The position numbers were made by a program, and so were the translations under genes. The notes under the pieces are model-generated. The model made no database searches. It had not been told where the DNA came from and saw nothing but the letters and a program-made list of their open reading frames with translations. DNA of 62,746 nucleotides, filler included. It is 4 parts of 4 records of this genome, joined end to end, with 100 filler letters (N's around TTAATTAATTAA, not from the genome) between each part and the next. Parts side by side here need not be neighbours in the genome. Positions count along the whole stretch, not along the records: positions 27,206 to 44,575 come from SRR20825019_1722; 3 more parts are not named here. One strand, given 5' to 3'. Positions within the stretch are counted from its first letter, which is position 1; the number at the start of each line of letters is the position of its first letter. This document shows, one piece after another, positions 27,106 to 56,113 of the stretch.

Positions 27106-27205
27106 NNNNNNNNNNNNNNNNNNNNNNNNNNNNNNNNNNNNNNNNNNNNTTAATTAATTAANNNNNNNNNNNNNNNNNNNNNNNNNNNNNNNNNNNNNNN
27201 NNNNN
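27106..27205. other. Artificial contig linker
   Basis: N44-TTAATTAATTAA-N44; the 12-mer gives stops in all six frames. Confidence 0.99.
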
Positions 27206-27468
27206 ATGTTGCCGGGACTCTCGAACAATAAACCTGAATTAATTGCAAACGCTACTTGATTGTTGCGATTGTTGCAAGATGGTCTCATCCACTGAAACAC
27301 GGGAGAATATAAGGAGCACTTACGCCCTTCAGTGCAGACGAGGGTGGAATACTCTTATAAATCTAATTCTAAATTTTTATCAGTGTTCCGGCATAATTAA
27401 CTAAAACCGGCCGCAGAAGCCATGTTCTTAGTCCATGGCGACGCACTACTTGGTCTATATACAACTAA

Positions 27469-28761
27469 TTATCCAGTGGCGGCCTTGTGGAGGTTGATCT
27501 TAACCTTGTCCTCCTCCTTGATGCCCTGGTAGTACTCCTGGAGGATCTCCAAGACTTCATCACGACCGAAGTGTTCAGGAATAGGCTCACCCTCGGAGAG
27601 AAGCTTGCGGAGCTTGGTTCCGGAGACAATTACACGGTCCTCCTTACCGTGGGGGCAAGTGCGCATGGAAGCAGGTCCGTCACACTTGTGGCAATAAAAG
27701 GTCCAGTCAATCTTCAAGGGCTCGCAGAGGAGGTTCTTAGCAGCATCGGCAGAGCGGGGGATCTTATCGAAGATCTCCTGGGCATCAAAGAGACCATAGT
27801 AGTCCCCAACACCGGCGTGGTCACGGCCAACAATAAGGTGGGAGCAACCGTGGTTCTGGCGGAAGAGAGCGTGGAGGAGAGCCTCGCGAGGACCAGCGTA
27901 ACGCATATCCAGGGGGTAGCCAGCCTGGAGCACCTTCTCCTTGACAAAGTACTTGTCGACGAGAGTGTTGATGCACTTCACACGAACATCAGCAGGGATG
28001 TCGCCAGGCTTCAAGTTACCAACAAGGGAGTGGATGAGAACACCATCGCACACCTCAGCAGCGATCTTGGCAAGGTACTCGTGGGAGCGGTGCATGGGGT
28101 TGCGGAGCTGAAGGGCAGCAACAGTGGACCATCCGGCCTGCTCGAACAGAGCACGGGTCTCCTCGGGGCGAAGGTAGATCTCAGGGAACCTCTCAGGGAA
28201 ACCACCCTCAGAGAGAACCTTGACGGACCCAGCAAGGTTCACGTCCTCCTGGTTCATCACCATCTGGACGCCGGGGTGTTCCAAGTCGGTGGTGGTGAAG
28301 ATATGCTCGCACTCGAAGTTCTTGGCGTTCTTGTCCATCACGTAGGCATCGCCGACACGCATGGTGGCCATGAGGGTGTCGTTGTGGTAAAGGGCAACCT
28401 CCTCATCGGGGACAATGTCCTTGGCAACAGCCTCAGCGGTGGACACGGTGATGGGAATAGGCCAGAAGGTGCCGTCAGAGAGAGTGAAGTCGGTGCACAC
28501 ACTGCTCCAGTCGGACTTGCTCATGAAGCCATCAAGGGGAGAGAAGGCACCGTTGCCCATCATGATAAGGTCACCGGCTTCACGGGAGGTGATGTCGACC
28601 CTCTTGAGAGACTCGGCCTTCTTGACCTCTTCGGTGTGGGCGTCGCCCTCAAGAAGGTTCTTGACGAGGCCACGGCCGCCATGAACGGGGATGAGGCGAG
28701 AAGCCGGGGTAGCAGCAGTGGAGAACGATCTCTTGGCAATGGCCTTGGCGGAGGACAACAT
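27469..28761 (-). CDS. sat: ATP sulfurylase (sulfate adenylyltransferase), intronless, with mitochondrial-type presequence
   Basis: [34 protein letters not shown], Zn motif CHKC...CPH; leader [22 protein letters not shown]. Confidence 0.95.
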
Positions 28762-28792
28762 GTTGCTTATTTTTCGAAGGTGAACGGTGTAA

Positions 28793-28802
28793 TATATATA
28801 TA
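28793..28802. promoter_or_regulatory. TATA-like (TA)5 upstream of sat
   Basis: TATATATATA about 32 nt upstream of the ATG at 28761. Confidence 0.4.
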
Positions 28803-29813
28803 GCTGCGGTAGTAGGAACGAACAAGTGGGGGTGGGGGTGGAGGTGGGGCTAGGTGGTCTGAGATGCTTAGGGTATGGGAGTTCTTTGCCCCCCTCGACA
28901 GTGGCAGCGTGGCAGTGCGACACTGTGAGATTCAAGTGAAGATCACTCTCAGGACTGTCGTCCGTCGTTTCGATTTTCCGATTACGCCAGCGTGTGCAAG
29001 TGCAAAGCGTCGTCTGACTTCACTCGGGAGTGAGACCCCGACAAGGCCAGCCTGGCCTCGACCGAGAGGGGATGTGGGTTACTATTCACGAGCAGTCTGC
29101 CCGAGGGATCGCGACTCGGCGGGCACTGGGGTCCGTCGGTCGGGGTCTCGGCCGCCCGGCAGCCGGCCGGCTGTAACATCGTCGAAAAATGCTAAACAGG
29201 GCATCACGAAAAAACCGGGGATCCAAGCGGGGCCAGACGGTGCCGCCTCGATAGGCAGGTCGTACTGATGAATTTAGCATCACCGCCTAACCCCCAATTT
29301 CGCCCTCTCCCGGCGATTGCCCGGGTCGACCGGGCAGCTCGGCATTTCAACTTGTGATGCGCCGGCGGCAATGACTTATGTGTTATGGTGCTCATGCGAT
29401 CCCCCGTCATGCCTGGAGGCGATCCGTCCTCGACGATGCGAGGCGCGCCGGGCCCTGCTTGTTAGCGATACGCCAGAATCGCCAGGATCCGTCCAACCGG
29501 CGTTTGGACTTTGGCTTGTCCCCTGGTCAGTGCCCACTTGGTGGGACTTGTCCGACGATCATTCTCCATCGATCCACCCTCCGGCGCGCGCCGGGGACGA
29601 ACCGTGACTTGCGTATGATCGATGACGCGTTCGATCGGCCAGCCCACCCCGGCTATTGGGTGGGGCGCTCGATCTCCCGCCAGGTTGCGACAACGCCGCC
29701 ACTTGTTGTTGCTCGTCATGTACTCACCTTGCTCTGCGCATCCCGCAAACCTCCTTCACAAACCATATATCTAGAGCCTTCTCAAGAAGACTCTAAGCCT
29801 ACCGAACGTCAAT

Positions 29814-30632
29814 ATGCTCGCTGCCGTTTCGACTCTCTTCCGCTCTGCGGCTGCCCCTCGTGCCGTGTCGACTGGCATTCGTGCCATGTCTTCAGTGGCT
29901 CTTCCCACCAACTTCGTCGAACTCAACGCCAAGAAGGACTCGACTCCCCTTGAGATTATGGATCAGGCCCTTGCCCACTACGGTATGGACGCTGCCATTT
30001 CATTCTCTGGTGCTGAGGATGTCGTCCTCATCGAGTACGCCAAGCAGACCGGCCGCCCCTTCCGCGTGTTCTCCCTTGACACCGGGCGCCTTCACCCCGA
30101 GACCTACCAGTACTTTGCCGATGTCGAGGCCCACTATGGCATTAACATCGAGTACATGTTCCCCAACCACGCCAAGGTTGAGGCTCTTGTTCAGGAGAAG
30201 GGCATGTTCTCCTTCTACAAGGATGGCCACAAGGAGTGCTGTGGTGTTCGCAAGGTTGAGCCCCTCAACCGCAAGCTCAACACCCTGAAGGCCTGGATCA
30301 CTGGCCAGCGCAAGGACCAGAGCCCCGGAACCCGCACAGCTGTCCCCTTCGTCGAGGTCGACCCTGTTTTCAAGGGTCAGGGTGAGAGCGGTGAGTTGAT
30401 TAAGTTCAACCCTCTTAGCGACACCACCAGCCGTGACACGTGGACCTTCATCCGTGCCAACAATGTTCCCTTCAACCCCGTGCACCTCCAGGGTATGGTG
30501 AGCATTGGATGCCTGCCCTGCACCCGCCCTATCACCCCCGAGCAGCACGAGCGTGAAGGTCGCTGGTGGTGGGAGTCCACCGAGCAGAAGGAATGCGGTC
30601 TCCACTCTGGAAATACCAAGAAGGCTGCATAA
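29814..30632 (+). CDS. cysH: APS reductase (4Fe-4S CysH type), intronless, with mitochondrial-type presequence
   Basis: [46 protein letters not shown]; leader [27 protein letters not shown]. Confidence 0.94.
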
Positions 30633-30914
30633 GCTGGGGCGTTTCACCGGATGTTCTGATGAGTCCAGAGTAATATCATCTTAGAGTGTACAAAGCATCA
30701 GTCGCGTGAGTTACAATACATATATCTATATACATAGTAAACTCAACAATCTTGTCAGTCGTGTAAGGTGTACGGATTCTTTTAATGCATATCAGAATAC
30801 CTCGCATCGCGAGGAAGCTTGAACTCAGAAGCAGGGACTCGACTTATTAGACGCTCGACCTACTATGACTGAATATTCCACAATGAAGAATTGCAATAGA
30901 CACACTACAACAGA

Positions 30915-32389
30915 CTACTCAAAGAAGTTCTCAGACTCAGAACGGGGAGGATGATAATGATCCCGCGAAGCGCCATCCACAGATATTAACCCATTAGGAC
31001 GGCTGCGGAATTGCTCGTCTGTAGTGTTCACGCTAGCCCCCACCGCCAGCCCAACGCCTGACACCGCGTCTGATAGCCTCTCGCCTCGTAGATTGCCTCC
31101 TGTGGTGTACACTCCTGTGCGGCTAGCCGCAGTGGGAGGAACCTCCGGTAGAAGCGCCTCCGAAGATGGGCCATCCGTTAGGGCACCTTCCACATCGAAA
31201 TCCTCATCTCGGGGAGAAACCTTGCCCAGCTTTTCCCCGGGTACATGACCAGACCCCATACCGATCCACGTCTTGGCTGATCCTCGCGGTTTAGGTATCA
31301 GTGTACGGTAGGTAAGGTCAATATCATCCAACACTTCCTTCACGCTGAAGGCGTCACCCACAGTTTCAAAGAACGGGGCCTTCACTTGATCATCCATCTT
31401 GAAGTCACGATAACTAAAGGCATACTGGTGCAATAATGCGGCGAAAAACATTTCAATACATATCAAAAAGTCCTGGACTCCAGTAGCGACATTCTCCGCC
31501 GTAAACTGCGCGGTCTCATGTATAAAATCTACCCTCGTAAGCACAGCAATGGCAAGACCCTGCCAGAATGTGAAAAAAACCACCGCCTTAACGCAAAGGA
31601 ACTTAATTCCTGGGTTGTACTTTGCCAACAGTTCCCGTGTCCCCAAGTAGAAGAGAAGCAGCGCATACAATGCCACCGTGACAGAAAGATTCGTCAAGAA
31701 TGTGATGTACACATATCCACTCTGGAACGAGAACTCTCCCTCCCGATATACACCTCCCCAGTCCAAGAAGAGTGACAGTACCGACAATGTAGGCTTCAAC
31801 ACGAGAAACTGGCACACAGCAGCCTTGGACATGTCTAAGAACCTCCTGCGCTTCGTGTAAGAAGCACAGCGGCTCATAAGGGCGAACTCAAACTTACTTG
31901 TTCATCTTCACTGGCTTCAAACAGAGGTTGAGAGGAGGAGCATGTTTGAGAGGCGGTTGGAGTGATATTGCATCCAACAACTTGTCCTCGTCACCAATAT
32001 AGGCCTAGGATACTCAATCAGTAACTGGCCCGGCTCGTTGGACAAGAGCTACTCACCTTAAGCAAGCACAAGAAGGTATAAAGCGTGTAAGCCTCATATG
32101 AGTCCCTGACAATATCATAATACATAGAGTACTCCAGCGACATCAATCCAAACCAGGAGTCCAAAGCATAAACCTGGCCATATTTTCAGGCTAAGAGCGG
32201 CACTCACACTCACACATATCCTACCGGGACCATGACCAGAATGCGGAGGTATAGTCGTTGAACTAATGGCCTAGTGTAATAACGAAGATGCTTTGCACTA
32301 TGGTATATGGTAATAGCAACGCTGAGTAGAGCAAACACGCCAGCCACGCCAATGGCCAACTTGTGGAGGACACCCTCGCTCTTTGTCAT
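30915..32389 (-). CDS. TMEM184: TMEM184/OST-alpha family transporter, 4 exons
   Basis: Spliced HLRYYTRPLVQRLYLRILVMVP|VYA, RDSYEAY, KFLCVKAVVFFTFWQ, LICIEM; GT-AG introns 32174-32224, 32005-32056, 31846-31897. Confidence 0.9.
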
Positions 32390-32729
32390 TGTGAAGACGA
32401 TTTCGTCCGTGGAAGTCTCCAGGATGACGCTAAGTGTGATATGCTACCGGAATGTGATCCTTGTCTCCAGGTTATCTATAAGTTTTTATTTGACTTGTCC
32501 AGGTGGAGTGCGGTTGTTCGACGATCAAGGACTCCATCCGTTGGTATTCGCTGCATACACGGCTAGTCGCCGCCAACTCGCAGTCGAAACGGAACAAAAT
32601 CACAGTCCAATGCTTCTCCAGCGGCCGGCAAGGCAGGTTGCCAGAGCCACAGACAGCTTCGTGACGGCCAGACTCCCCATCCGAATCTCACGAGGACCTG
32701 ACTAGGGACCCACCGCTGTCTCTACTTTC

Positions 32730-33420
32730 ATCAGACCGGGCCCACAACCCGTTCACTGCTGATGCAGCCAGCATACCGCCGGCCACGGAGCAGCCCGGCC
32801 CAGCCCGGATGAGCAAAGCACCCAACTGAAGATTGCGCCAGTGGGCCAGCCGGCGCGGCCGAGTCAACGGCGGTTGGCTCTAGTCGCCCCTGTCAGAACC
32901 TATGGCCGACTCACTGGCAGTCAGTTTGCGCCTGCGGACGAGCGCGATCAGGTTGGCGCGCCAGGCCCGGCGGCAGCCGGCTGCCGGCCGGGCGCTCGGG
33001 ACCGGGGGCGCGCGGACGCCCCCGGCCGCGCGGGGCCCGGCGGCGGCGCCGCCCCGCGCTGGCGGCGACCAGGCCGCCGGCCGCACCGCCGTCCGTCCCG
33101 GCTGGGCCGGAAACGGCATCAGCACCCAAAAATAGCACGCGGAAGAACACGGACCAAACTCCTGATGAAAGGCTGTGCCCGTCAGGAGCGTGGGGGGGCC
33201 GGAACCAACCCTTTTCTCAGTTGGCGCCGTTGACATGAACCAATCACTATTTGTTTCCAGGTCGATCAATGTCTTTCGACCTGATGTTGAGATCAATCTG
33301 TGATTCGATCTCGACCACCGGCACCGGGTCCTGGCCGGCCGCGCCGCGCCGCCCGGGCTGTTGCTCGCGTATGGTGAACCACGGACCGTTGTGAAGCTAC
33401 TTCGGCCGGCCGTCCAAATG
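32730..33420. promoter_or_regulatory. GC/CCGG-rich island between divergent TMEM184 and PDCL3
   Basis: Near-pure G/C tract at about 32950-33120 in an otherwise mid-GC contig; limits approximate. Confidence 0.55.
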
Positions 33421-33542
33421 CCACACTTCCATGCAGAGTGAGGTACCCAAAGGTTTGTCGGCTGACTAGAGGAGACTTGTCGCGAGACCTCTATTAATAC
33501 GGATAGGTTCACCTCACAGTCAAACTCAAGAAGCCCGTCACA

Positions 33543-34308
33543 ATGGCGACTGAGTGGGACGATGCCCATATGAAGGTTGGGACTGACTATGGCATGAAAC
33601 TGCGGGAAGAAGCAGCAGCCAGAAAGGCAGAAGAGGAGTTGGAGGAACTGGCCTTGGAAGCAGCCGCCAACTACGACCCCCTCGAACACAAAAATTTGGA
33701 CCAACTCGACGAACTTGAGGATGATGAAGATGAGAGAATTCTTGCGGCATATCGTGAGAAGCGTCTGCAAGAAATGAAGGAGCAGGCAAAAAATAGTCGG
33801 TTTGGTGATGTTCGTGAGATTGCTCAACCTGATTGGGAAGCGGAAGTAACCAAATCAGGGAACACCTTCGTTGTGGCCCACTTGTACAGTAATAGGTGAG
33901 TAGATGAACAGGGGATCTGTTGACTTTCAATAACTTTGCTCTTGTCGCAGTGTAAGCATGTGTGAAGTTGTCGACCGCGCCATGATGAGCTTGGCATCAA
34001 AGTTTGGCCACGTCAAATTCGTAAGGATAGTTGGAAGTCGTTGCATTCCAGACTACCCAGACAGAAATTGCCCCACAATATTGGTTTATAACAATGGTGA
34101 CATCCAGTCACAGATTGTTCGTTGTGAAGGCTTGGGAGGAGCACACATGACGCCAGATGACTTAGAGTGGAGACTGAGCATCCTTGGGGCTGTGAAGACC
34201 GATCTTGAAGATGATCCAGCTGTTAACAGACCAGTTCAAAAAATGACGTTTGCCAGGGGAGCCCCGCGCGACCGCAGAAACGATGATAGCGATGTGGATT
34301 CGGACTAA
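33543..34308 (+). CDS. PDCL3: Phosducin-like protein 3 (Plp2/viaf), 2 exons
   Basis: TEWDD, LDELEDDEDERILAAYREKRLQE, CIPDYPDRNCPTILVY; intron 33896-33950. Confidence 0.9.
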
Positions 34309-34402
34309 CACCTCTCTCCTGCACTTGGATTTTCTGGTTCCAATTCCACGGAAGACCTTGCGCTGAGATGGCTCTTATCTAAATAGGACTTAAACTGGAT
34401 GG

Positions 34403-37400
34403 TCACGGTATGAGAGCGGTAGTTGACTTGGTTGTATCCCTCCGATCCCTTCCCTGTTTCGTTCCATTAGTGATGTGTAGTTCTACTCACAACGGAAAAC
34501 CTACATGTTGTTGGCTGGATTTCTCTTGTAAGGAGTCCAGAGACCGCTCCTCTTCAAGGCCTTTCTCAAGATCTTTGTATGTTTTTCTAGAGTTTGGGGT
34601 ATTTTCTCCTTTGAGGGTTGACAACGTGCGCGCAACAGCAACCACACTGGCCCTCCTGGATGCCCTCAGAGAACTTTCCATCACAACAGGTGGTCTCAAC
34701 CCAGAGAGCTGACGCCTGGCCGCGCTTCTTCCCTTCTTCCGAATCAGCCATAGAATATATCCTCCCCCGGCTATTATGGCAAAACATACCGTCACTGCAA
34801 CAGCTCGTCAGGATGGATGCATGAGATGAATAGGCCAACACACCTCCTACAACACACAATGCCAACAGGCCTCCAACACCAGCACTCAGGAGTATCACCA
34901 ATAGATAATTGTTGGCCGACGCAGCCGTAGCGACGGATTTCGTGACAACACCAAATGTAGAGAAGTGAGAAGTGCTCCCAGTGCACACCGACCTACAATG
35001 AGAAAGATTAGACAAATTACGCGATGCGATACATTCATATTCGCACCCTGAGAGCGAAATGTCCGATTCGCACACCCATTGATTGTTACTATCGGCATAC
35101 GCAAGGCAGTACGATGCAGCGCTGTCCAGCAGAGTGCAAGATAGGCCGATCTCAATATTAGACTGGAATGTCTGAGCAAGTACTGTGATCCCATCCGTCG
35201 CGTCAACAAAGTCGAGATTGACCACAGAGCTGTGGATGGCGCTGCTGTCTTGCCCAGGCAATTCGCTATCGCGAACTGCGGACACACTGAAGCATGCAAA
35301 ATGTTAAGATCGAATCCTGTTCACGAATCTTAGGAGCACCGCTACCTCAGCATCACATTGGCAACAGAGGATAGCGCCGAAGCAGGCACTTTGACTTGCC
35401 CAAGAATGCTACCGGTGCTGTCTTGGTGTCAGCATCTCATCGACTTTGAAGTGTACCAATATAGCTCACCTATCGGACATATCAACTACGGAATCAGACC
35501 CTTCTGTAAGATCATTAATTGTGTCGACAACCTTGCGCGTGAAAGGAGGCGTTACACAATTAGATGCAGAGCTCGCACATGTTCCTGGGAATTCATTAGC
35601 TACGGACAAGAACGGTGCGGGGAAGAAAAATCACTGTACCATCAAAGCAGAGATGAAAGCCTGACGTGCAAAGACCCCCTGAGCAATCCGACAGCGATGT
35701 CTTACAAGAGCCATCACCACAAAGAATCTCCCCGACTCCACATCCGTCATATGCGGGGCACTCTCCGGATGTGCAACTCGCGTCAGGACATGGCTTCTGT
35801 CCGGAAGGGCAGGACGATGGCGGGCAATCTTCAGCCAGAATGTTAATACGACTTCCATTCATGGGAGAGAATTAAATATACCTGTAGACGAAGAAACGCA
35901 ACCTGAGGGGCATCGCCTGGGCGTAGGTTCTGCGCAACTATCTGGAAAAATGTACAGCTTCGTGGCCACAGCGGGACAGGCACCATCAAAGCCATAAGGA
36001 GATACGCGAAAGTAGTACTGAAAGAACCATCAGTCCGACCACTCTATTGTGCAAACAAGGCAATGGCACATACAGTTGACCCTACGGAGAGTGAAGAGAC
36101 ATCGACGGTGACTTCTCGTGCGCTAGTCTTGGTTGCTAAGGTTACTACTGAAGAGGAGAAAGCCTTGTCCGTGGAATATTGCACTGTGTACGAGAACGGA
36201 GACTGCGCAGAATTAGGTACTTGAGATCACTTCTGAGATGCGAACTCACCCGCCCTGTACTTGGTTCCCGCCACGATACTGCTACGTGGGTCGAATTCCG
36301 GAGCGCAGTTAATCGACCCACTCTGCTACATCTGACAAAAGAAAAACTCAGCATTAAATCGCAACAGGAAGATGTAGGAGCTTACGATGGAAAACAATTG
36401 CTCTGGCATCCATTCGAGGTCAGACAGTGCTGATTTGTCTGCCCACAATAGCCCTCCGCTGAACAGCACTGTCCCTCAAATTTTCCAGTACATGGTTGAT
36501 TCGGCCCGCACCGCACCACCCCATTCAAACACTCGTCAATAGAGACGATGCGATACTTCTTTGACTTGATGTAATTCACAACTTCCTCTATTGCTGAGAT
36601 GGTGTGGGCGAGTGTGTCATGTTGCAAGTGAATCAAACCCGACGGCTCCGAGCTTTCAAAGTCACTCTTGAAAGTGGGCAAAATCTGACTTTTGGTCGCA
36701 TCATTGAACTTCCAGTCCTGCACAATTGCTTCAGCCACATGCCAATGGCCCGGCTCTTGTGGCATTGACCCACCTTTGTATCCGCGGAAAAATGGACCAC
36801 ATACATTCCCATGTCAGTGACAGTCGACCTAGTCAGTTCTGTCACCTCCCCGTACGGCGGCCTGAAATGGCGGACCTTATACGGTATGTACTTTTCAACG
36901 AAGTAATTCGACTTTCCGAGATCATCGCGTATTTCCTTTGCGGTCGTGTAGGTGGAAAAATTGGCGTGAAGCCAAGAGTGCTGACCAACGTGATACCCTG
37001 CCGCCACAATTTCCAGGAGAACAGTACTGTGGTCACTCCAAGTCAACCGTTTTCCATTCACGAAAAAGGTAGCCTGCATACAATCCATAAGACATCAATG
37101 ACACTATGTACAACTGGTCGTGCGCCTACGTTATCAACCTTCAACCGCTGTAACTCGGCCACCGCGTCTCGAGTGACCTGACTGGATGGCCCATCATCAA
37201 AAGTTAGCAATATGGTGCCGGGCTCCTTGCAGAGTTTGATTTCCTCAGTTCTGTGTGGACAACCACCAGAACAGTCACCTGGGCAACTGGTGCATGTCTC
37301 TGCCTCCTATGACAAACAACATTTGAGTCACGAGAGTTCAAACAAGTGCTCCTATTAGTACTAACGTTGCAGACGCCGTCGCCACACGATGCGGTACAGT

Positions 37401-37813
37401 TGGCCTGGCAACCCTCTTCAACCAAGCAGTGTTCGCTGGTAGTGCCACAATATCCTGACCTGGAGCAGCACAGTCCAGCATAACTGTGCTGACAAGGATT
37501 TGCGGCGTCGCAGCGATTCGTCTGTTCGATCGTGCATAAGCGTCGATGGTCGCCTAAACACACCATCATACCTCCACGGTACAGTTAGCCTGGCAACCTC
37601 TTGATGTAAGGCAATGATCGTCCGTCGTCCCTGAAATCTAGCGTAAGGTGGAGCAAAGCAACTGGGCGCCCTCCTACCGCAATATCCATATTGGCTGCAG
37701 CAATGTCCGGCCTGGGAGCATCCCCCAGTTTCTGCTGAGCACGAGGGTTCAGCCTCGTGAACCTGAAGCAAGACTAAGAGAATAAGCAATGTCTGAGGAA
37801 TACTCTTCCACAT
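34403..37813 (-). CDS. Multi-exon type I membrane protein: signal peptide, hevein x2, NodB/CE4 deacetylase, hevein, FN3, Cys-rich repeats, GPS-like motif, TM, tail
   Basis: Manual splicing through ~14-15 short GT-AG introns; TFDDGP (37187-37204), HSWLH, FRPPYG, DTKDW, LQHD; CCSxxGYCG x3; FN3 VSW...LSVGSTYYFRVS; TSHFSTF (34953-34967); stop at 34487 if the last intron is retained. Confidence 0.75.
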
Positions 37814-38029
37814 CTTGACCTATCCTCAGCTCAGAAATTGGTATCTGATAGGGTTCTTCTTCACAGACTAATACAAGTACACGAGCCCAAGCTCCTATGG
37901 ACACGGACCAAATAGAACGAACCAAGAGCCCAGTTACCGAAGCTACACAAACCCGTCAACAGTCAGCTGCCACAAAAGTTGAACCCCAGACAAGAAACGT
38001 GTGGCACTGGCAGGACGATCGTGACACAG

Positions 38030-38860
38030 ATGGCCACCGCTTGTCATTCAAACCTCGCCAATGCCGCGGTGGAAGGGAAGGTTACCGGGGCGGGCGGCGC
38101 AACACGGTTCGTCAGCGGCGGGTCGGCGCCGGCAACGGCGTCCCGGCCCGCCGGGGCCGACCCGACACGAGGATTGCGGACTATGGTGATGCGATCGTGA
38201 CCGCCCGGCATCGCCAGCAGCTGGCGGTGGCCAAGTTGAACACCATCGGATTGGACCACGGCCCGCCGTCACCCGGCCGGGCGGCGGTCGGCGCATCGGA
38301 CCGTCGCAAACTGAGCCCTGCTGCGGCTCCCTGACCGCCGGCCCAAAGCACCGCCTCGGTCAGCATCAAACCACACTAAGCGGCTTCAAGGCTGGAACAC
38401 GGACAGTTGAAAACTGAAATTGGCAACTCCATCAGTCCGGTCATTCGGGGCACCCGACCGGCACGGCCCGGCCACTGAGTCCGGGGTCCGTCAGTTCCTT
38501 CTGTCAGTGTGCCGGCGCCCGGCGACGCCGGGCGGCGCGGGTCAGGGGGCGGCTTTGTCACTGTCATCATCAGGCAACTTCAATTGATTGTGATAATTGA
38601 TCGATTGATTGATTGATTGATTGTAATTACATCAAATGATCATCCAAGTCCAAGGGTGGCAGGTTTGAACTGCAGCGCCGGGCCCGGGCCGGCCCGGCAG
38701 GGGCCGGGAGGCCCGCGCGACTCATGCCCATCCCCCGGGCCGCGGCGGGCGGCCTGTGGTCGTTGTCATGGGCGGCCCCTCGGCCCGCACGCCTCACAAA
38801 CGGCCGCCCGGCCACCCCGGGCTGGCCGGTTCGGGCGCCGCCGGACGACGGCTGTTTTGG
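38030..38860. promoter_or_regulatory. GC-rich island with central (GATT)n tract between divergent genes
   Basis: CCGG-dense flanks; GATT repeats at 38603-38623; limits approximate. Confidence 0.5.
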
Positions 38861-39505
38861 CGGCGATGCAAAGTCACACTGTAGTGTCAGGTCCAGGAGA
38901 CCACTGGCCAGTGAGCCCCATCATTACCACTCCAACATACCAACAGTTCACTTTTCATGAATTTGGAACACCTTATTTGACGCTTTATGTATTTGAAGGT
39001 TATTAGCGATACTTGTGGATCTATATCCATAGCCTCTGTGTTGACGGTATTGACGCCACATATGGGCCTTGAAGAAAATATGGGGTGCACTGCACTTGGT
39101 AACGGAGAGTGCGTAGAAAATTCACCTACTGACAATGCCTTCCCGATATCTACGGAGTCCTCGCCCGGCGAAGCATCGACTGGGAGCTCTTGTAAAGAAC
39201 GAGAAGTTTTATTGAACAACCAACACGCAGGAGCAGTCGTATTTGCATCTTCCGAGCTAGACTGTACTCAGGCCATTAGCATCTTGAAAAAATGCTCGAT
39301 TTTAATATCCCGGGCTGGTATTGGGCCATTTTCTCAAGCAGATGCTAAACTTGTTCTTGGTTTCGATACGGATGCAGGAGTTGGTAAAGAGTGCTCATGT
39401 GAAGACTGTCAAGATGTTGCCGTATTGAGGAAAAAGAGCAAGTATAGGCAACAGATAGAACTGAACTCCAAGCAGTCATCCAAAAATCCGAACTTGTCAG
39501 AGTAG

Positions 39506-40319
39506 GTTGAAGAGGCATCTGACCCACTTGCCCTCATGCTGTTGCGTAGATTTGCTATTGGAATTGCAGTCAATACCCCTGTATCTCGATTAGCAGTGAA
39601 AGCATTGGACAATCGACTAATTAGAGTCAAAACTTTCGATGCTATCATGCCAGCTCTTTTGGCATACTTGCTAGAGAATTGCGGCAGCAAGTCGGTGTTC
39701 AAGCAGCGAGTATCAAAGTGGATTACATGGTTTCCATTTAGGGATTGGGATGCGTGGTTGTCCATCTGGCACCGACCCTCTAAGGGACAGGTGCTCCCAT
39801 TGAGGGATGAAGGGTGCACTATGGTTGTAACGCTTCAAGCAAAGTCAGAACAAGCCGAAGAGATCGGCAAACAAGCTCAACGCGCCGGCATGAAATGGCT
39901 TTGGGTGCCCCTTGAAGGTGCAAACCAGGCTATCCTTAGCAAGAAAGAAACGAAGAGGTGCGTGCGTGTCGACGATGCCTTTGTTCTAGCTGATATTATC
40001 GCAAGGGTGTTGGTATCAGCGGCACGTGAGGCGTTTGCTGAACTGCGCGGTGGGGGACGACTCGTGGTCCACTGTGCTGCGGGAGTGCATAGAACAGGTA
40101 AGCTTGCATGTCAGACTACAATAGGGTTGCGTTCGCTGAATTTCTAATGTAGGAGTCTTTTGCTATTTGTTGCTTAGGATGGCGGGCTATTCACACGATG
40201 AAGCGCAGGTTAGCATGTGGAGAACCCGCGCAGAGACAGGACGCGGAGTTGGTGTTCACCGTGTTGAATACGCCGAAACACTCGTGCCCGATATACTCGC
40301 ACAGTCAATAGACTCATGA
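39506..40319 (+). CDS. Cys-based PTP/dual-specificity phosphatase; 5' structure uncertain (may begin in ORF 38987-39505)
   Basis: VVHCAAGVHRTG P-loop; intron after it, last exon GVFCYLLLRMAG...SIDS ending at TGA 40317-40319. Confidence 0.75.
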
Positions 40320-40531
40320 GACCTGAACGGAATCTATTGCGGGAAGAATAATGGACATCTAGACCCTGTGCATCTTTACTTGGTCTACGAGCGGAACGAA
40401 TGCCACGAAACATATCTTATTGGTCAGGACTGTTCCAACGGGTTTCCATTCCTTCCTTTCCGCAAGAAATCCTGCTTCTATTTGAAATTTCCTTGGCTTG
40501 CCGCTGGGTTTTCAGTGCGGAAAAGAAACGC

Positions 40532-41521
40532 CTATTCCCAGCTCTCATCTTCACTGGTGCTGTTGCTCGATTCCTCTGCTTCTACACGCGCCTGCTTCGA
40601 TGCTCCTCCACCAATATCAAGACCGAATAGTGTGGACAGATTCCTCTTGCGCTGGGTCGGAGATCGTCTCGGACTAAACGCCAATGTCCCGTAAGCGTCC
40701 GGCTGAGACATCTTGCGCTCCCGCTCCTCCGTGGCAGCAGCAACCACCTCCGTGTCTGTGCCCCAGTTAAGTTTTGCACCTATTCCAGCATAAAGGTCAT
40801 ACCTGGCATTTTAGTGTACAGTGACCCCATTCTGATCATAAGCTCTTGCGGTGCTGGAGGCTGTCGCGGCAGGATGTTGTCGCCCTCTTTATATCCTGGT
40901 GGTGCGGACATAGTATACGAGACCTTCCTGGCATAATGGACGAGATCATCAGGTTGCACAGGGTCTGTCAAAAAGTATACAATTAGGCAGCCGCACGCGC
41001 ATAAACGCTTCTCGCATACTTTTGAGCCCTTCCCTTAATTTCTTCAAGCGCTTTCGGCCTTTCTCGGTGGACTCCATCAGCTTCTCTTCAGCATTTTTCA
41101 GGCTGTTCACGAGAGAGGATAAGGCTTCAGTTCTCTTCTGGCACTCTTGTTGCACATGCACAATTTTGGACTGAAACTCCTGATGTTTCTCGACTAGTAT
41201 AAGCAAGAAAAATTAGCTCCAAGTATGTGAGAGAGAGAAGAATACTTACGGTTTTTTAGATTTTCTTGTAGCACCCTATCCCGCTCTACCAGGACTTGAA
41301 CAAGTTCATGTGGTTGCCCGCCAGCCTTTCAAAGAAACAGTGAGTGAAGTTGAATCAGCAGACAAATTTTTTCGTACACTTGTGGGAAGTCTTTGGTTAT
41401 CATCTCGAGCATTTACAACATCCCGGATGCTGACTGCCTGGTGCTGAACTGACTCCAAAACCTTTTTGGTAAGGGCAGCAATAGTATTGAGGTCGGCGTG
41501 AAGATTCTTTACGGCGCTCAT
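40532..41521 (-). CDS. MED4: Mediator complex subunit 4, multi-exon
   Basis: Coiled coil, then VQPDDLVHYARKVSYTMSAPPGYKEGD...PPAPQELMIRMGSL, acidic C-terminus. Confidence 0.8.
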
Positions 41522-41589
41522 GGAAGGCTTCTGGTCATTCGTCCAACGTGACACGTATAGATATTTACTAAGGCTCCACTAAAGGCTGC

Positions 41590-42030
41590 ACACCGTCACG
41601 GCAGCTGTCGCCAGCCTACCGCTCGCTGGCACCCTGACCGGCCGGTGCGCCGGCGGGGGCCTCGGGACGGGGCGGCCGCCGGGCTGGCACTCGGAGTCAT
41701 CAGCTTGGGAGCCGGGCCCCCGCAGCGGGAGGGGCCGTATGTACTCCACCGCCCGCTGCCATATGGGGGGGCTCAGCCGGCGCCGGCCGGGACGGGCGAG
41801 CCCCGGGGCTCACCAGTGGCCGGCTCCGCGTGAGTGAGCGACCCGACGGGGGTCAGGCCGGCTGCCCCGTGGCGTCGCTCGCCGGCGCCGGCCCGGACTG
41901 GCCCCGGCGCGGGGTCCCGGGCCGGGGGTCGGCGGGCGGGGCCGGTCGGCGCCCCGAGCGCCGTGGGGCCGGGGGTCGGGTCCCGGGCCTCGGGTCCCCC
42001 GGGCCCCGCCGAACCTCCGCCCCCGCCGCC
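41590..42030. promoter_or_regulatory. GC-rich island between divergent MED4 and MPLKIP-like genes
   Basis: Near-pure G/C tract; limits approximate. Confidence 0.55.
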
Positions 42031-42166
42031 GAACTACTTTCAGGTTCGGTTCACTAGGTGTTCGTGCATACAGTATTGCTGGGACAGTTGGTGAGACCTC
42101 AGAAACACTCCGGTTTAAAAGCATCCAGAACTTCCTGTAGAGAGAATAAGTTTATCGTTGGCATTC

Positions 42167-42691
42167 ATGGAACTTCCAACCCAATTTGGGAAGGTGCGGA
42201 ATCATGGACCAAGGCACCACCCTTATTCGTCGCCAGCAGGGGGAGCTGGCGGTCAAAGAGGTGGCCACCGTGATAACATGGGGGCTAGGGGTAGGGGAGG
42301 TCGCGGGGGTCACTCGAACAGAGGTGGACTACGTGATCACCGAAACGGGGGTCGAGGAAGGCAGCAAGGTTTCCAACAAGGTTTCCAACAGGGTTTCCAA
42401 CAAGGAATGGGGAGCGGTGACCGGAGTTTCCCACACAGTCTGAACAGAGGAGGGCACCGAGGAGGGGGTGGGGGGGGTCCTCAAGCAGACGGCCGCGGAT
42501 ATTTCAAGGCGTCATTCTTTGAGGATCCGTGGCGAGAGCTGTTGGATGAAGCTGGTATGTATACAGCGGCCGCTTGCGACTTTCAAGTTGCCAGTCTAAC
42601 TTCCATATCTGTAGATGGCGGCAGCATACCTAAGGCGACTGGGTATTTCAAACCAACTTTCTTTGAAGATCCTTGGAAAAATTTGATGTGA
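42167..42691 (+). CDS. RGG-rich protein with two MPLKIP/TTDN1-like C-terminal motifs
   Basis: YFKASFFEDPWRELL and YFKPTFFEDPWKNL; QQGF x3; probable in-frame intron 42555-42614. Confidence 0.65.
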   Translation: MELPTQFGKVRNHGPRHHPYSSPAGGAGGQRGGHRDNMGARGRGGRGGHSNRGGLRDHRNGGRGRQQGFQQGFQQGFQQGMGSGDRSFPHSLNRGGHRGGGGGGPQADGRGYFKASFFEDPWRELLDEAGMYTAAACDFQVASLTSISVDGGSIPKATGYFKPTFFEDPWKNLM

Positions 42692-42910
42692 TCAAAATTG
42701 TGAAGGAAGCGATGAGCAAATTCTGTCTTGCTGGTAAGGCATGGGACACTTAGCAGGTGGCTGGCCTACCACAGCTACATACGTTGAGTTTGAGCTTTGC
42801 GGCTATGAAGTCAGCAGTATGGCTCCGGAGTCACTATGTATGAAAAAGCTATCCCATTCCATTGCCGTGTAACTAGGATCTTGTAATATCACAGTAATGT
42901 TTATTCGCAA

Positions 42911-44575
42911 TTAATAGGACAGGTCGTCGACCATCTGAATGGAGGGAGGAATGGTGACTCCATCTTCGAAAAGAAGAGAAAGCACCATTGGCTTTGCAGT
43001 ATTCGTAGAGTTGGATGTGTCCGCTGCTTTGTCGGGAACACATACGCACTTGCGCTTACCCTTCGACTTGTGCACCTTGTGTCTATGCTTCTGTTCGCGT
43101 TTCTTATGCTTGAGACCACGGCCTGCAGCTTCGCTGCCATCGCCTTCAGAAGAGCCCTTACCCACGTAGTCGTCCTGATCTTCGGGAGCTGAAGACACAT
43201 CGGCTAGCGTATCCTCTGCGCCAGCGGCGTCCAACATGCTCGTTCCAGGCATCTCGGCGGGATCGCCAGATGGTTTCAGCAAGTCATCCAAGCTGCCCGA
43301 TGAGTCCTCAGTTCCCTCTTCCAACTCCAGCATTGATACATCATTTCCCCTGTTCCCGCTTGAATCTTCGTCCTCATTGGCATGGACATGTGTGCATTTG
43401 CATTTCAGACCGTCGGACGAAACCGGCAGGTCGAAGTCCTTGCCAACATCCAAAGATTGCTCTTGAGCTACATTCTCTGCGCTCGATGGTGCATGATGCT
43501 CGCCAACCTTCTCGTTCATTTCCTCCGCCCCAATGCGCCCTCTCTTGCCCGTGAGCTGGTTCCCGTAAGGCAAGTTCTTACCTCGCGATGACATCATGCT
43601 AGTCCCCGGGCCTCCCCCGACATCCCGGCGGCCAGAACGTGCGCAGCTATTGGCGTTTCCTGAGGCTCCACAGGCCGCTTGCTGCTTCATACGAATATGT
43701 TCCTTGAGATCCCTCTCCAATTCCATGATGGACAATGTGACTTCCTGGTCAATCAACTTGTTCTTGCTCCAAACATTCGACATATCCGCGCGAACAAGGT
43801 CCGTTGCCTTGACACTCTTCTTTTTAAGACGCATCAACGTTCGAGAAGCCCACTTCTTTGCTTTAGTGGCGAAATTCCACACCTTCTTAATGCTTCGGGG
43901 CACATGACCAATGGTTTTGACCCGCTTTTCCATCTCAAGTCTCATCTTCCTCACCATCTTCTTGTTGTGTTCGATCTCCGCCCATGTCTGCTGCGATTTC
44001 CCAGTCATCGTTTTCAGCTGTGCCTCCATGTCTTTGCGAGCCTGCCTTAGCTTTGTGTTTTGCTGAAGAGTATGAACATGGAAAGCCCGTAGACGCTTCT
44101 GGAGCTGAGCAAGACGCACATAAGCGGTGTAGTGATACTTGCGCAACAAAGTGTTGTATCTCAACAGCTGCCGGATCTTGTAGTGCTTCTTCCTATCCTT
44201 AACGTAAGCTCCCGCATCGCGACCCACGGCCATCCACTCCACATGTAAGCCATAGACCAAGGCATCTCCCCAGGTCTGTATGCGGTACTTAAAGCCCCAG
44301 CTATAAACCCTCTCTACAAAAGCGTCCACCTTCTGGGAAACCCTTCTTTGCGTGTCGAGTAAGCTCAAACTGAGATGCACCTTAGGGGCCCCAAAGAACT
44401 GCGACTTGAAGCGAACAACATGGGTGCGACGCCGAGTTGGCCTGTACGGACGCCAGTCTCTCAGAACACTTGTACTAAGGCGATGTCTGCCGCGCGCAAT
44501 TTTGGTACCCGGGAAAGCCACAGTTGCTCCTTTTGTTAATGAAACATCCGTTGCGGGTCTGGGGTATGTGGGCGA
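42911..44575 (-). CDS. H-type lectin domain + coiled coil + acidic low-complexity tail (5' truncated)
   Basis: VRFKSQFFGAPKVHLSLSLLD...GFKYRIQTWGDALVYGLHVEWMAVG; frame open to the contig end. Confidence 0.7.
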   Translation of the reverse strand, partial: SPTYPRPATDVSLTKGATVAFPGTKIARGRHRLSTSVLRDWRPYRPTRRRTHVVRFKSQFFGAPKVHLSLSLLDTQRRVSQKVDAFVERVYSWGFKYRIQTWGDALVYGLHVEWMAVGRDAGAYVKDRKKHYKIRQLLRYNTLLRKYHYTAYVRLAQLQKRLRAFHVHTLQQNTKLRQARKDMEAQLKTMTGKSQQTWAEIEHNKKMVRKMRLEMEKRVKTIGHVPRSIKKVWNFATKAKKWASRTLMRLKKKSVKATDLVRADMSNVWSKNKLIDQEVTLSIMELERDLKEHIRMKQQAACGASGNANSCARSGRRDVGGGPGTSMMSSRGKNLPYGNQLTGKRGRIGAEEMNEKVGEHHAPSSAENVAQEQSLDVGKDFDLPVSSDGLKCKCTHVHANEDEDSSGNRGNDVSMLELEEGTEDSSGSLDDLLKPSGDPAEMPGTSMLDAAGAEDTLADVSSAPEDQDDYVGKGSSEGDGSEAAGRGLKHKKREQKHRHKVHKSKGKRKCVCVPDKAADTSNSTNTAKPMVLSLLFEDGVTIPPSIQMVDDLSY

Positions 44576-44675
44576 NNNNNNNNNNNNNNNNNNNNNNNNN
44601 NNNNNNNNNNNNNNNNNNNTTAATTAATTAANNNNNNNNNNNNNNNNNNNNNNNNNNNNNNNNNNNNNNNNNNNN
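44576..44675. other. Artificial contig linker
   Basis: N44-TTAATTAATTAA-N44. Confidence 0.99.
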
Positions 44676-56013: not shown

Positions 56014-56113
56014 NNNNNNNNNNNNNNNNNNNNNNNNNNNNNNNNNNNNNNNNNNNNTTAATTAATTAANNNNNNNNNNNNNNNNNNNNNNNNNNNNNNN
56101 NNNNNNNNNNNNN
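56014..56113. other. Artificial contig linker
   Basis: N44-TTAATTAATTAA-N44. Confidence 0.99.

Follow-up and report, generated by a model that had tools for sequence, protein, structure and literature searches.

A divergent pair of genes for ATP sulfurylase and APS reductase with presequence-like leaders on a eukaryotic contig

A gene for a Sat-type ATP sulfurylase and a gene for a [4Fe-4S]-type APS reductase without a redoxin domain are located head to head on a eukaryotic contig, and both encode a short basic N-terminal extension that is free of acidic residues. On the basis of these extensions we favor, if with some reserve, that both proteins are imported into one organelle, probably the mitochondrion. 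The pair was found in a stretch of 62,746 nt (the window), which is not one molecule but a concatenation of four contigs; the linkers between them are N runs that include a short AT stretch (27106–27205, 44576–44675 and 56014–56113).

The eukaryotic contig and its two enzymes

The contig with the gene pair extends from 27206 to 44575 (17,370 bp). Delimited by the N linkers, it carries spliced GT..AG introns and eukaryote-type Pfam neighbors and appears to be the only eukaryotic contig in the window, as the other three look bacterial. Beyond the reductase, a gene of the Solute_trans_a family (OST-alpha-like; Pfam PF03619, E 2.3e-53) is found at 30774..32460 on the minus strand. Its three GT..AG introns of 51–52 nt (31846–31897, 32005–32056 and 32174–32224, minus strand) are skipped by contigs from two public runs, X1 and X2, which both contain the joints. 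Therefore, this contig is eukaryotic and transcribed, and for 27206–44575 the eukaryotic origin assumed in a first-pass annotation of the DNA is confirmed. A search with an exon of this neighbor returned 21 matches, the top one a eukaryote-transcriptome record with 37% identity and the second one from the streptophyte alga Klebsormidium (44% identity across 55% of the query); a close green-algal match was not among the 21. In an atlas search, Chlorophyta made up the majority of the first cluster, a weak indication given in coarse taxa only. No family was returned by an Rfam scan of the contig and no tRNA by a search across the window, and a complete bacterial genome of 4.2 Mb (G001) had no match to 27206–33500. 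The best explanation for the genome carrying the pair is a gene-dense eukaryote, with the pair being nuclear.

The sulfurylase gene is intron-less and located at 27469..28761 on the minus strand (430 aa plus TAA). A PUA_2 domain at residues 26–184 (E 1.3e-46) is followed by the ATP-sulfurylase domain at residues 194–410 (E 1.4e-87; PF14306 and PF01747, respectively), and the protein passes the NCBIfam models NF003166 (492.4 bits, cut-off 387) and TIGR00339 (374.7, cut-off 322.95). In an alignment of nine sequences the elements Q218-L-R-N-P-M-H-R-S-H227 and G312-R-D-H-A-G317 are invariant, corresponding to Q-x-R-N-P-x-H-x-x-H and G-R-D-H-A-G, which we take to be the nucleotide and sulfate-binding motifs. 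Equally invariant in these nine are C357, C360, C369 and H371, a C-terminal Cys/Cys/Cys/His cluster that presumably forms a metal site. The identity to Sat proteins of Desulfobacterota (named proteins from Desulfobacterales, Desulfovibrio and Desulfurivibrio) is 64–68%, with 68% reached against one Desulfovibrio sequence. By its sequence the enzyme is thus of the Sat type of sulfate-reducing bacteria. In a tree built from the query plus 29 out of 120 listed hits, however, it is placed not within bacterial Sat but in a sister clade to the bacterial group, together with five other extension-bearing proteins (P0121–P0124 and P0171; SH-aLRT 95). One of these five relatives comes from a eukaryote transcriptome collection, and all six clade members have a 13-residue deletion in common compared to three bacterial Sat.

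The reductase gene, also intron-less, is located at 29814..30632 on the plus strand (272 aa plus TAA). Its product is an Fe-S APS reductase of the CysH type, with a PAPS_reduct domain (PF01507) at residues 61–239 (E 1.2e-46). The closest solved structure is 2goy (E 3.4e-89), and according to the translation and the alignment to 2goy all Fe-S and catalytic cysteines are present (ECCGVRK, GCLPCT and KECGLH); the cysteine pairs CC..RK and GC.PCT are the definition of an Fe-S APR (Patron et al. 2008, PMC2275785). The protein passes TIGR02055 (239.8, cut-off 235.3). The best-scoring NCBIfam model is TIGR00424 with 384.3 bits, which is under its cut-off of 553.2, and this match covers profile positions 93–329 of 464 only. 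A C-terminal thioredoxin- or glutaredoxin-like domain is absent, as neither PF00085 nor PF00462 matched, and there is no space for one 3' of the gene, which ends at 30632, the last exon of the next gene starting 282 bp beyond on the opposite strand. The enzyme is 66–69% identical to those of plants, green algae and red algae. In the tree it falls within a clade with the Archaeplastida APR (support 99) and outside of the green/plant clade (support 98). A representative search returned 5082 hits, and the best 150 of these 5082 include many fragments, the underlying 50% clustering being too coarse. Judged by their placement in the trees, reductase and sulfurylase differ in ancestry. The identities proposed for both genes from the first-pass annotation agree with the Pfam and NCBIfam results, at the same coordinates.

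Transcript-like contigs, promoters and the spacer

Contigs from three public runs (X1 and X2 from one sample, X3 from another study) all cover both genes. On the minus strand, cDNA-like contigs (X1 records 1–2, X2 records 6–8) extend over 27373..28768 for the sulfurylase, and on the plus strand (X1 record 4, X2 records 9–10) over 29801..30726 for the reductase. Each leader is in one piece with its coding sequence: X1 record 2 and X2 record 8 traverse the sulfurylase leader up to 28768, and X1 record 4 and X2 record 9 begin at 29801, 5' of the reductase leader. The first-pass annotation had considered the case of transcripts that start downstream of the leaders; the contigs span both of them instead. 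Their ends are 7 nt (sulfurylase) and 13 nt (reductase) upstream of the leader ATGs, which are the first ATGs of the inferred mRNAs. Contig ends alone do not prove an RNA start, and 28768 and 29801 are called inferred 5' ends here. A non-genomic loose end is attached at 28768 in both X1 and X2, and another loose end precedes 29801 in X2; these resemble a template-switch oligo and presumably mark RNA 5' ends. Furthermore, a TATA-like element is found 23–34 nt upstream of the sulfurylase end (28791..28802, minus strand) and another one 30–37 nt upstream of the reductase end (29764..29771, plus strand). Including the end at 32460, three out of three ends lie about 23–37 nt downstream of such an A/T-rich element.

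The head-to-head layout with a spacer of about 1.05 kb was described correctly: it measures 1052 bp from ATG to ATG (28762–29813; GC about 0.59, CpG o/e 1.06) and 1032 bp between the inferred 5' ends (28769..29800). It contains no repeat family and no Rfam match. That contigs of X1–X3 are missing over 28769–29800 and from 32461 on carries no evidential weight. All four divergent pairs on the contig have a GC-rich spacer of about 0.6–1.2 kb, and the spacer studied here matches the other three in length class, GC, CpG o/e and GC-rich 8-mers. Since a GC-rich divergent spacer of about 1 kb is the norm on this contig, it is no evidence of co-regulation. Co-regulation, suggested previously, may exist but receives no support from this layout, in which each gene has a TATA-like element of its own; the same applies to one short promoter region shared by both genes. 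The immediate adjacency of the two genes would be expected by chance with a probability of about 2/N, that is, 1e-4 to 4e-4 assuming one gene per enzyme among 5,000–20,000 genes. Orientation and spacer length add no weight to this estimate because all four divergent pairs are alike.

Leaders, import and competing explanations

The N-terminal extension of the sulfurylase comprises 22 aa (codons at 28696..28761, minus strand) and has no counterpart in bacterial Sat, which begins 3 residues ahead of the conserved L-[IV]-P-x-H-G-G. In the reductase, 29 aa (29814..29900, plus strand) precede the part shared with the stand-alone homolog P0003. The leaders contain four (sulfurylase) and three (reductase) Arg plus Lys and no Asp or Glu at all, whereas control stretches of 25 aa held 4–6 acidic residues in four of five cases and one in the fifth. 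Thus, the basic, acid-free character reported for both extensions was found again, and the patterns R-x-F/S (KRSF/S, sulfurylase) and R-x-M/S (IRAM/S, reductase), cleavage-like as judged by eye, read as quoted. In windows of 11 residues, the helical moment peaks at 0.71 in the reductase leader and at 0.47 in the sulfurylase leader, the latter value being inside the controls' range of 0.38–0.56. The best 9-residue Kyte-Doolittle means are 1.12 (sulfurylase) and 2.07 (reductase, borderline and without a charged n-region). By this measure neither leader has the signal-peptide hydrophobic core of a bipartite complex-plastid leader, and a secretory leader is therefore rejected.

Both leaders start with Met-Leu, as do those of four out of the five closest sulfurylase relatives. 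The extensions of these five are 29–46 aa long, have 0–1 Asp or Glu and are not conserved in sequence; being retained and acid-poor in spite of this divergence, they behave as targeting peptides do. Moreover, the first in-frame Met after the start of the sulfurylase is residue 67, within the PUA domain, and hence the extension is always translated. The reductase has an in-frame Met25 (29886–29888) with a purine at -3, just 5' of the start of bacterial homology. Initiation there would yield a leaderless protein of bacterial length, and the short 5' leaders of 7 and 13 nt ahead of the first ATG could favor leaky scanning.

From the mitochondrial targeting claimed at first, the import-like nature of the leaders was upheld; a mitochondrial rather than a plastid destination is no more than probable, as the reductase type has so far been tied to plastid-bearing eukaryotes. 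According to PMC2275785, Fe-S reductases from this clade have to date come from eukaryotes with plastids, aplastidic ones using PAPS reductase, and plastid leaders of green algae are short and not separated from mitochondrial ones by software. Because of this similarity, we can only infer a mitochondrial destination for the pair studied here.

The explanation we propose is the following. The Sat-type sulfurylase would convert sulfate and ATP to APS, which the [4Fe-4S]-type, thioredoxin-dependent reductase would reduce to sulfite. Each enzyme would be made with a short basic presequence lacking in its prokaryotic relatives, and the two would share one destination, probably the mitochondrion, where a free thioredoxin or glutaredoxin might donate the electrons in place of the fused redoxin domain of the plant enzyme. 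As a tentative reading, an aplastidic protist may reduce sulfate within its mitochondria, independently of Euglena, by a nuclear module of two genes of different foreign ancestry. It is conceivable on the same terms that a Desulfobacterota-type Sat like the organellar one of Archamoebae and a redoxin-less APR of the plant/algal clade were brought together in what is now a divergent pair. Similarly, the six-member clade of presequence-bearing Sat might represent a wider, unrecognized set of eukaryotes whose organelles metabolize sulfate, and what Entamoeba and Mastigamoeba have as an "activation-only" pathway could then be a remnant of such a module.

The strongest competitor, though an unlikely one, assumes an algal host whose plastid is primary and of the green type; the leaders would then be short transit peptides, and the unusual enzymes would serve ordinary plastid sulfate assimilation. 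The position of the reductase with the Archaeplastida APR and its high identity to the plant and algal enzymes fit such a host, as does P0098, a relative that has no redoxin domain but a long leader rich in Ser and that adjoins the green clade in the reductase tree. So do Klebsormidium as the best named match of the neighboring gene and the Chlorophyta in the first atlas cluster, although the neighbor has no close green-algal match. On the other hand, the reductase is outside of the well-supported green/plant clade and without a thioredoxin domain, and its leader, like that of the sulfurylase, is shorter than the 41–83 aa found in six plastid-type APR homologs. An early Phe motif marks red-type plastid leaders; it is present in the red-type P0004, P0006 and P0053 but in neither leader here, and a signal-peptide core is missing as well. 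In favor of the alga, transit peptides of green algae are short and inseparable from mitochondrial ones (PMC2275785). Yet, a Sat-type sulfurylase is not mentioned in excerpts of the algal surveys PMC2275785 and PMC4220642, and this type is known from mitochondrion-related organelles of Amoebozoa (PMC7465240).

Somewhat less probable still is that one or both leaders are inert, with the reductase made mostly from Met25, the sulfurylase extension non-targeting and the pathway cytosolic or dual. Points in its favor are Met25, with its purine at -3 just ahead of the bacterial homology, 5' leaders of no more than 7 and 13 nt, and a sulfurylase leader of weak helical moment; in addition, the aplastidic eukaryotes surveyed in PMC2275785 have cytosolic enzymes. 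Against this, the sulfurylase offers no in-frame Met before residue 67, all five closest relatives retain an extension, and extensions are present on both enzymes of the pair. We consider it very improbable that assembly error or contaminant genes only simulate adjacency in one eukaryotic genome. The window itself joins unrelated contigs, both genes are intron-less with bacterial-looking relatives, their GC3 of 0.72 and 0.73 exceeds the 0.42–0.60 of eight neighboring ORFs, and no independent contig crosses the spacer. However, N's and repeats are absent at and near the spacer, which resembles the other three between divergent pairs here. The TATA-like elements of both genes are spaced as in eukaryotes, and for either gene the cDNA-like contigs carry adapter sequence at the 5' end. 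Furthermore, both proteins have extensions missing in bacteria, and the bacterial genome G001 does not match the stretch.

Comparison with known systems

Current teaching places reductive sulfate assimilation in the plastid of plants and algae and in the cytosol of other organisms, Euglena being the sole mitochondrial exception (PMC2275785 and PMC4220642). If the pair were mitochondrial, it would be a second, independently assembled case; the compartment of this pathway would be more plastic than believed, and sulfate activation in the mitosomes of amoebae, which is puzzling, would be connected with a complete assimilatory route. Moreover, the pair would cleanly exemplify how genes acquired laterally from different sources become neighbors and gain presequences, and the reductase would offer enzymology a natural redoxin-less eukaryotic APS reductase. 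If the host were a small green alga instead, merely an unusual combination of enzymes in an ordinary plastid pathway would result.

Among prokaryotes, a sulfurylase gene is found beside cysH in 23 of 80 loci from bacteria and archaea. All 23 have both genes in the same orientation, unlike here, and their sulfurylase is of another type, 28–42% identical to the one described here. A metagenome scan with our sulfurylase returned 80 Sat-type loci (46–67% identity, prokaryotic-looking); none of these belongs to the extension-bearing clade, and in none of the 80 does a reductase gene of this kind lie closer than 5 kb. Judged by these loci, the pair does not look like a transferred bacterial sat-cysH operon, a reading rejected for its wrong sulfurylase type and orientation, and the pair on our contig differs further by its eukaryotic promoters and presequences. 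The reductase by itself resembles the thioredoxin-dependent CysH of bacteria (2goy), also a stand-alone Fe-S reductase of about 240–270 aa passing TIGR02055. With the plastid APR of plants and algae (TIGR00424, thioredoxin-independent) it shares a 66–69% identical reductase domain, the same Fe-S cysteine pairs and KECGLH. Unlike these enzymes, it has no redoxin domain at the C-terminus, and its leader is much shorter.

The Archamoebae have an organellar pathway consisting of ATP sulfurylase, APS kinase and pyrophosphatase, located in the mitosome of Entamoeba and in the hydrogenosomes of Mastigamoeba and Pelomyxa. As reported in parts of PMC7465240, the Desulfovibrio-like sulfurylase of Entamoeba sits in mitosomes and is about 60% identical to Desulfovibrio Sat, compared to 68% here, and the Mastigamoeba enzyme, assigned to hydrogenosomes, has a predicted N-terminal signal, comparable to the presequence-like extension of our enzyme. 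With such a sulfurylase already known from mitochondrion-related organelles of Archamoebae (PMC7465240), the earlier view of an undescribed system does not find support. The partner gene is different, as it is an APS reductase here and the archamoebal pathway has no reductive branch; conversely, families of APS kinase or pyrophosphatase were not among the 15 neighboring ORFs of our contig scanned with Pfam.

What the first-pass annotation had stated on Euglena and Entamoeba agrees with the literature. A euglenozoan host is unlikely for the pair, since at the cDNA-like contig ends no spliced leader is seen between adapter and gene. In Euglena gracilis the sulfurylase is of the algal-plastid type, in contrast to the Desulfobacterota Sat type found here, and gene order is not reported in the excerpts of PMC2275785, whereas our two genes are adjacent and divergent. 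Localization is experimental there and deduced from presequences here. Nevertheless, as in our proposed mitochondrial module, Euglena combines an ATP sulfurylase with an Archaeplastida-related Fe-S APR, each (like its sulfite reductase) bearing a mitochondrial presequence that is short and without a signal peptide (PMC2275785), and in both cases activation and reduction of sulfate are proposed to take place in the mitochondrion.

The gene pair and its genomic surroundings

An ATP sulfurylase gene of the Sat type (27469-28761, minus strand; 430 aa with PUA_2 and ATP-sulfurylase domains) and an APS reductase gene (29814-30632, plus strand; 272 aa with a PAPS_reduct domain) stand head to head, separated by a spacer of 1052 bp from ATG to ATG. 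Both end with a TAA stop codon and are free of introns and internal stops, and their ORFs and domain matches bear out the positions assigned in the first-pass annotation. The two sulfur genes have a third-position GC content of 0.72 and 0.73 versus 0.42-0.60 in eight neighbouring ORFs, which could reflect either the strong codon bias of well-used genes or a shared recent or foreign history.

Three N blocks that include a 12-base AT linker (27106-27205, 44576-44675 and 56014-56113) divide the 62,746-base window into four joined contigs with GC contents of about 55%, 52%, 34% and 64%; any finding that spans the joints would be an artefact. The pair belongs to the second contig (27206-44575; 17,370 bp), the sole eukaryotic one of the four. 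This is clear from the OST-alpha-like transporter gene adjoining the reductase (Pfam Solute_trans_a, E 2.3e-53), whose three GT..AG introns (52, 52 and 51 nt) are skipped in contigs of two public sequencing runs. The end of the first contig carries bacterial-looking ORFs (GST-like, peroxiredoxin-like and TetR-like). No match to 27206-33500 was found in the complete 4.2-Mb bacterial genome G001, with which 48% of the window's sampled words are in common.

Further neighbours on the eukaryotic contig are a phosducin-like gene and a weak Med4 match. A multi-exon gene at 36382-37819 (minus strand) combines up to three hevein-type chitin-binding motifs, two of them Pfam matches with their own stretch and the third weak (E 0.0065), with a NodB polysaccharide-deacetylase domain, and this chitin-deacetylase-like architecture might help in placing the host. 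At 38981-40147 (plus strand), two ORFs of the same frame, the second tyrosine-phosphatase-like, are split by a single TAG (39503-39505); with a GT directly following, it probably belongs to a small intron or 5' splice site. A MPLKIP-domain protein with Gly/Arg-rich repeats (42158-42691, plus strand; 12-nt tandem repeat at 42362-42405) is adjoined by an H-type lectin gene (42911-44575, minus strand) reaching the contig end.

Ancestry of the two enzymes

Among the best 120 database matches of the sulfurylase, 115 are 404-448 aa long and have no leader; those named by source come from Desulfobacterales, Desulfovibrio, Desulfurivibrio, Desulfosalsimonas, Desulfoluna, 'Deltaproteobacteria' and Thermodesulfovibrionales, with no other names, and all of these are 63-70% identical. 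Five of the matches listed, including the closest, have an N-terminal extension that is 29-46 aa long and contains at most one acidic residue (P0121, P0122 and P0123, 70-72% identity; P0124 and P0171, 64-65%); a eukaryote transcriptome collection is the source of one of them. A quick maximum-likelihood tree, built from the query plus 29 of the 120 matches listed (the five extension-bearing ones, those with a named source and a selection of the others), unites the query and these five in a clade (SH-aLRT 95) that is sister to bacterial Sat. In a 9-sequence alignment, the six extension-bearing sulfurylases have in common a 13-residue deletion versus three bacterial Sat (columns 185-197, query residues about 159-160), which could be a signature of the eukaryotic clade; the nucleotide-binding motifs and the C-terminal Cys3-His cluster are invariant. 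The protein passes NCBIfam NF003166 and TIGR00339, and its closest solved structures are 1jhd and 4dnx.

The reductase possesses both cysteine pairs and the KECGLH site, which define the Fe-S APS reductases according to Patron et al. (2008, PMC2275785). Among solved structures, 2goy comes closest (E 3.4e-89). The best matches lie in plant, green-algal and red-algal APR, whose reductase domains are 66-69% identical to the query and in most cases fused to a thioredoxin or glutaredoxin domain; five stand-alone proteins of 240-262 aa are also among the best. The plant model TIGR00424 yields the top NCBIfam score, 384 bits, which is below the cut-off of 553 because only profile positions 93-329 of 464 are matched, and the thioredoxin-dependent model TIGR02055 is passed (239.8 vs a cut-off of 235.3). 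There is no space for a further reductase exon, as the last exon of the neighbour lies 282 bp downstream on the opposite strand. In a quick tree built from the query together with 22 of 120 matches listed and 20 of 80 named prokaryotic loci, the reductase joins the enzymes of Archaeplastida and the five stand-alone proteins in a clade with a support of 99. Enzymes of cyanobacteria, acidobacteria, Methanoperedens and proteobacteria (60-65% identical) stand apart from it. The reductase has a long branch (0.84) and is not part of the green/plant clade, whose support is 98; the tree leaves its position within the 99-supported clade unsettled.

A sulfurylase gene lies within 3 kb of the reductase in 23 of 80 prokaryotic loci found with the reductase, always on the same strand and of another type, only 28-42% identical to that of the window. 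These 23 loci, among L081-L160, belong to Terriglobia and other Acidobacteriota, Methanoperedens and further archaeal and bacterial records. Such a reductase within 5 kb of a Sat-type sulfurylase was found in none of the 80 loci found with the sulfurylase. Thus, the two genes differ in ancestry. The pair does not resemble a transferred operon, since the prokaryotic pairs found in these loci are on the same strand and contain the other sulfurylase type; accordingly, the adjacency arose in the eukaryote.

Transcripts and the divergent spacer

Three public runs match the gene pair, none of them recorded as RNA: X1 and X2, from one sample, and X3, from another study; their contigs and the window are at least 99% alike. 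X1 and X2 behave like cDNA, with the three transporter introns spliced out and non-genomic loose ends at contig ends, which we take to be the tagmentation adapter and the template-switch oligo of Smart-seq-type libraries. The latter is added at the RNA 5' end. Oligo-like loose ends occur at 28768 (X1 and X2), 29801 (X2) and 32460 (X1, neighbouring gene), each with an A/T-rich TATA-like element 23-37 nt upstream. Contigs by themselves cannot establish an RNA start; from these loose ends and the spacing of the TATA-like elements, we infer RNA 5' ends at 28768 and 29801. The untranslated leaders would then comprise 7 nt for the sulfurylase (28762-28768) and 13 nt for the reductase (29801-29813), the first ATG in each message being the leader ATG. 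Both are very short; that of the neighbouring transporter gene would be about 70 nt.

The codons of the sulfurylase leader are covered by the contigs X1 record 2 (27916-28768) and X2 record 8 (28327-28768), and the reductase leader is inside X1 record 4 (29801-30726) and X2 record 9 (29801-30234). X3 contigs also cover parts of both sulfur genes. The first-pass annotation, which had proposed a clustered, co-regulated mitochondrial sulfate-reduction module, named transcripts starting downstream of the leaders as evidence against it. These were not found: the cDNA-like contigs include both leaders and end upstream of the leader ATGs.

The four divergent spacers of the eukaryotic contig (28762-29813, 32461-33530, 37820-38980 and 41579-42157) measure 579-1161 bp, with a GC content of 59-73% and a CpG o/e of 0.94-1.06; the four convergent spacers measured have 219-282 bp and 41-46% GC. 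In coding sequence the CpG o/e is 0.70-0.85, suggesting that gene bodies are depleted of CpG while promoters are protected. All four divergent spacers contain GC-rich 8-mers such as GCCGGCGC, and nine of the ten occurrences of these on the contig are located there. Since all four are alike, a head-to-head arrangement across approximately 1 kb is the ordinary layout of the host genome, and the only unusual aspect is which two genes adjoin. Each sulfur gene has its separate TATA-like element; common regulation of the pair is possible.

Target compartment and comparison with known systems

Measured against homologues starting at the conserved core, the leader of the sulfurylase comprises 22 aa (4 R+K, 7 S+T, 6 A) and that of the reductase 29 aa (3 R+K, 7 S+T, 8 A), both free of acidic residues; of five 25-aa controls from mature parts and neighbouring proteins, four have 4-6 acidic residues and one has a single one. 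The helical moment is 0.71 for the reductase leader and 0.47 for the sulfurylase leader; the controls span 0.38-0.56, which includes the sulfurylase value. Both patterns pointed out in the first-pass annotation, R-x-F/S and R-x-M/S, are present by eye.

We consider import of both enzymes into mitochondria moderately probable. In its favour count the short, basic leaders starting with Met-Leu on both partners and on four of the five sulfurylase relatives, and the lack of a signal peptide: a hydrophobic core was found in neither leader, with the reductase borderline at a 9-residue Kyte-Doolittle mean of 2.07. Two precedents count as well. In Archamoebae, this sulfurylase type is organellar: PMC7465240 describes it in the mitosomes of Entamoeba, whose enzyme and that of Desulfovibrio vulgaris are about 60% identical, and, with a predicted N-terminal signal, in Mastigamoeba hydrogenosomes; the likeness to the sulfurylase of the pair is one of type. 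Euglena has ATPS and APR with presequences, according to PMC2275785. Against mitochondria, other known members of the reductase clade belong to eukaryotes with plastids, and short green-algal transit peptides are inseparable from mitochondrial presequences (Patron et al. 2008, PMC2275785). Import of both enzymes into plastids appears rather unlikely; six plastid-type APR homologues have leaders of 41-83 aa.

That the leaders are non-functional or partly bypassed is improbable. In favour of it, an in-frame Met25 just ahead of the homology start makes a leaderless reductase possible; against it, the sulfurylase has no alternative in-frame Met before Met67. An artefactual gene pair is hardly credible. 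The host can be guessed at only from weak signs that disagree: the best match of the neighbouring transporter gene is a eukaryote-transcriptome record (37% identity), followed by Klebsormidium, and atlas clusters give Chlorophyta first, then Ascomycota.

The value of the pair depends on this host. In an aplastidic protist, it would mean that a mitochondrial pathway of sulfate reduction was built a second time and independently; if the host is a small green alga, the pair would be an unusual enzyme set of an ordinary plastid pathway. Our search of the open-access literature turned up neither a mitochondrial APS reductase outside Euglena nor a eukaryote in which a Sat-type sulfurylase is paired with an APS reductase. 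The single elements are already known: organellar Sat from Archamoebae, presequence-bearing ATPS and APR from Euglena and stand-alone Fe-S APR from bacteria. What is new is the arrangement that combines them.
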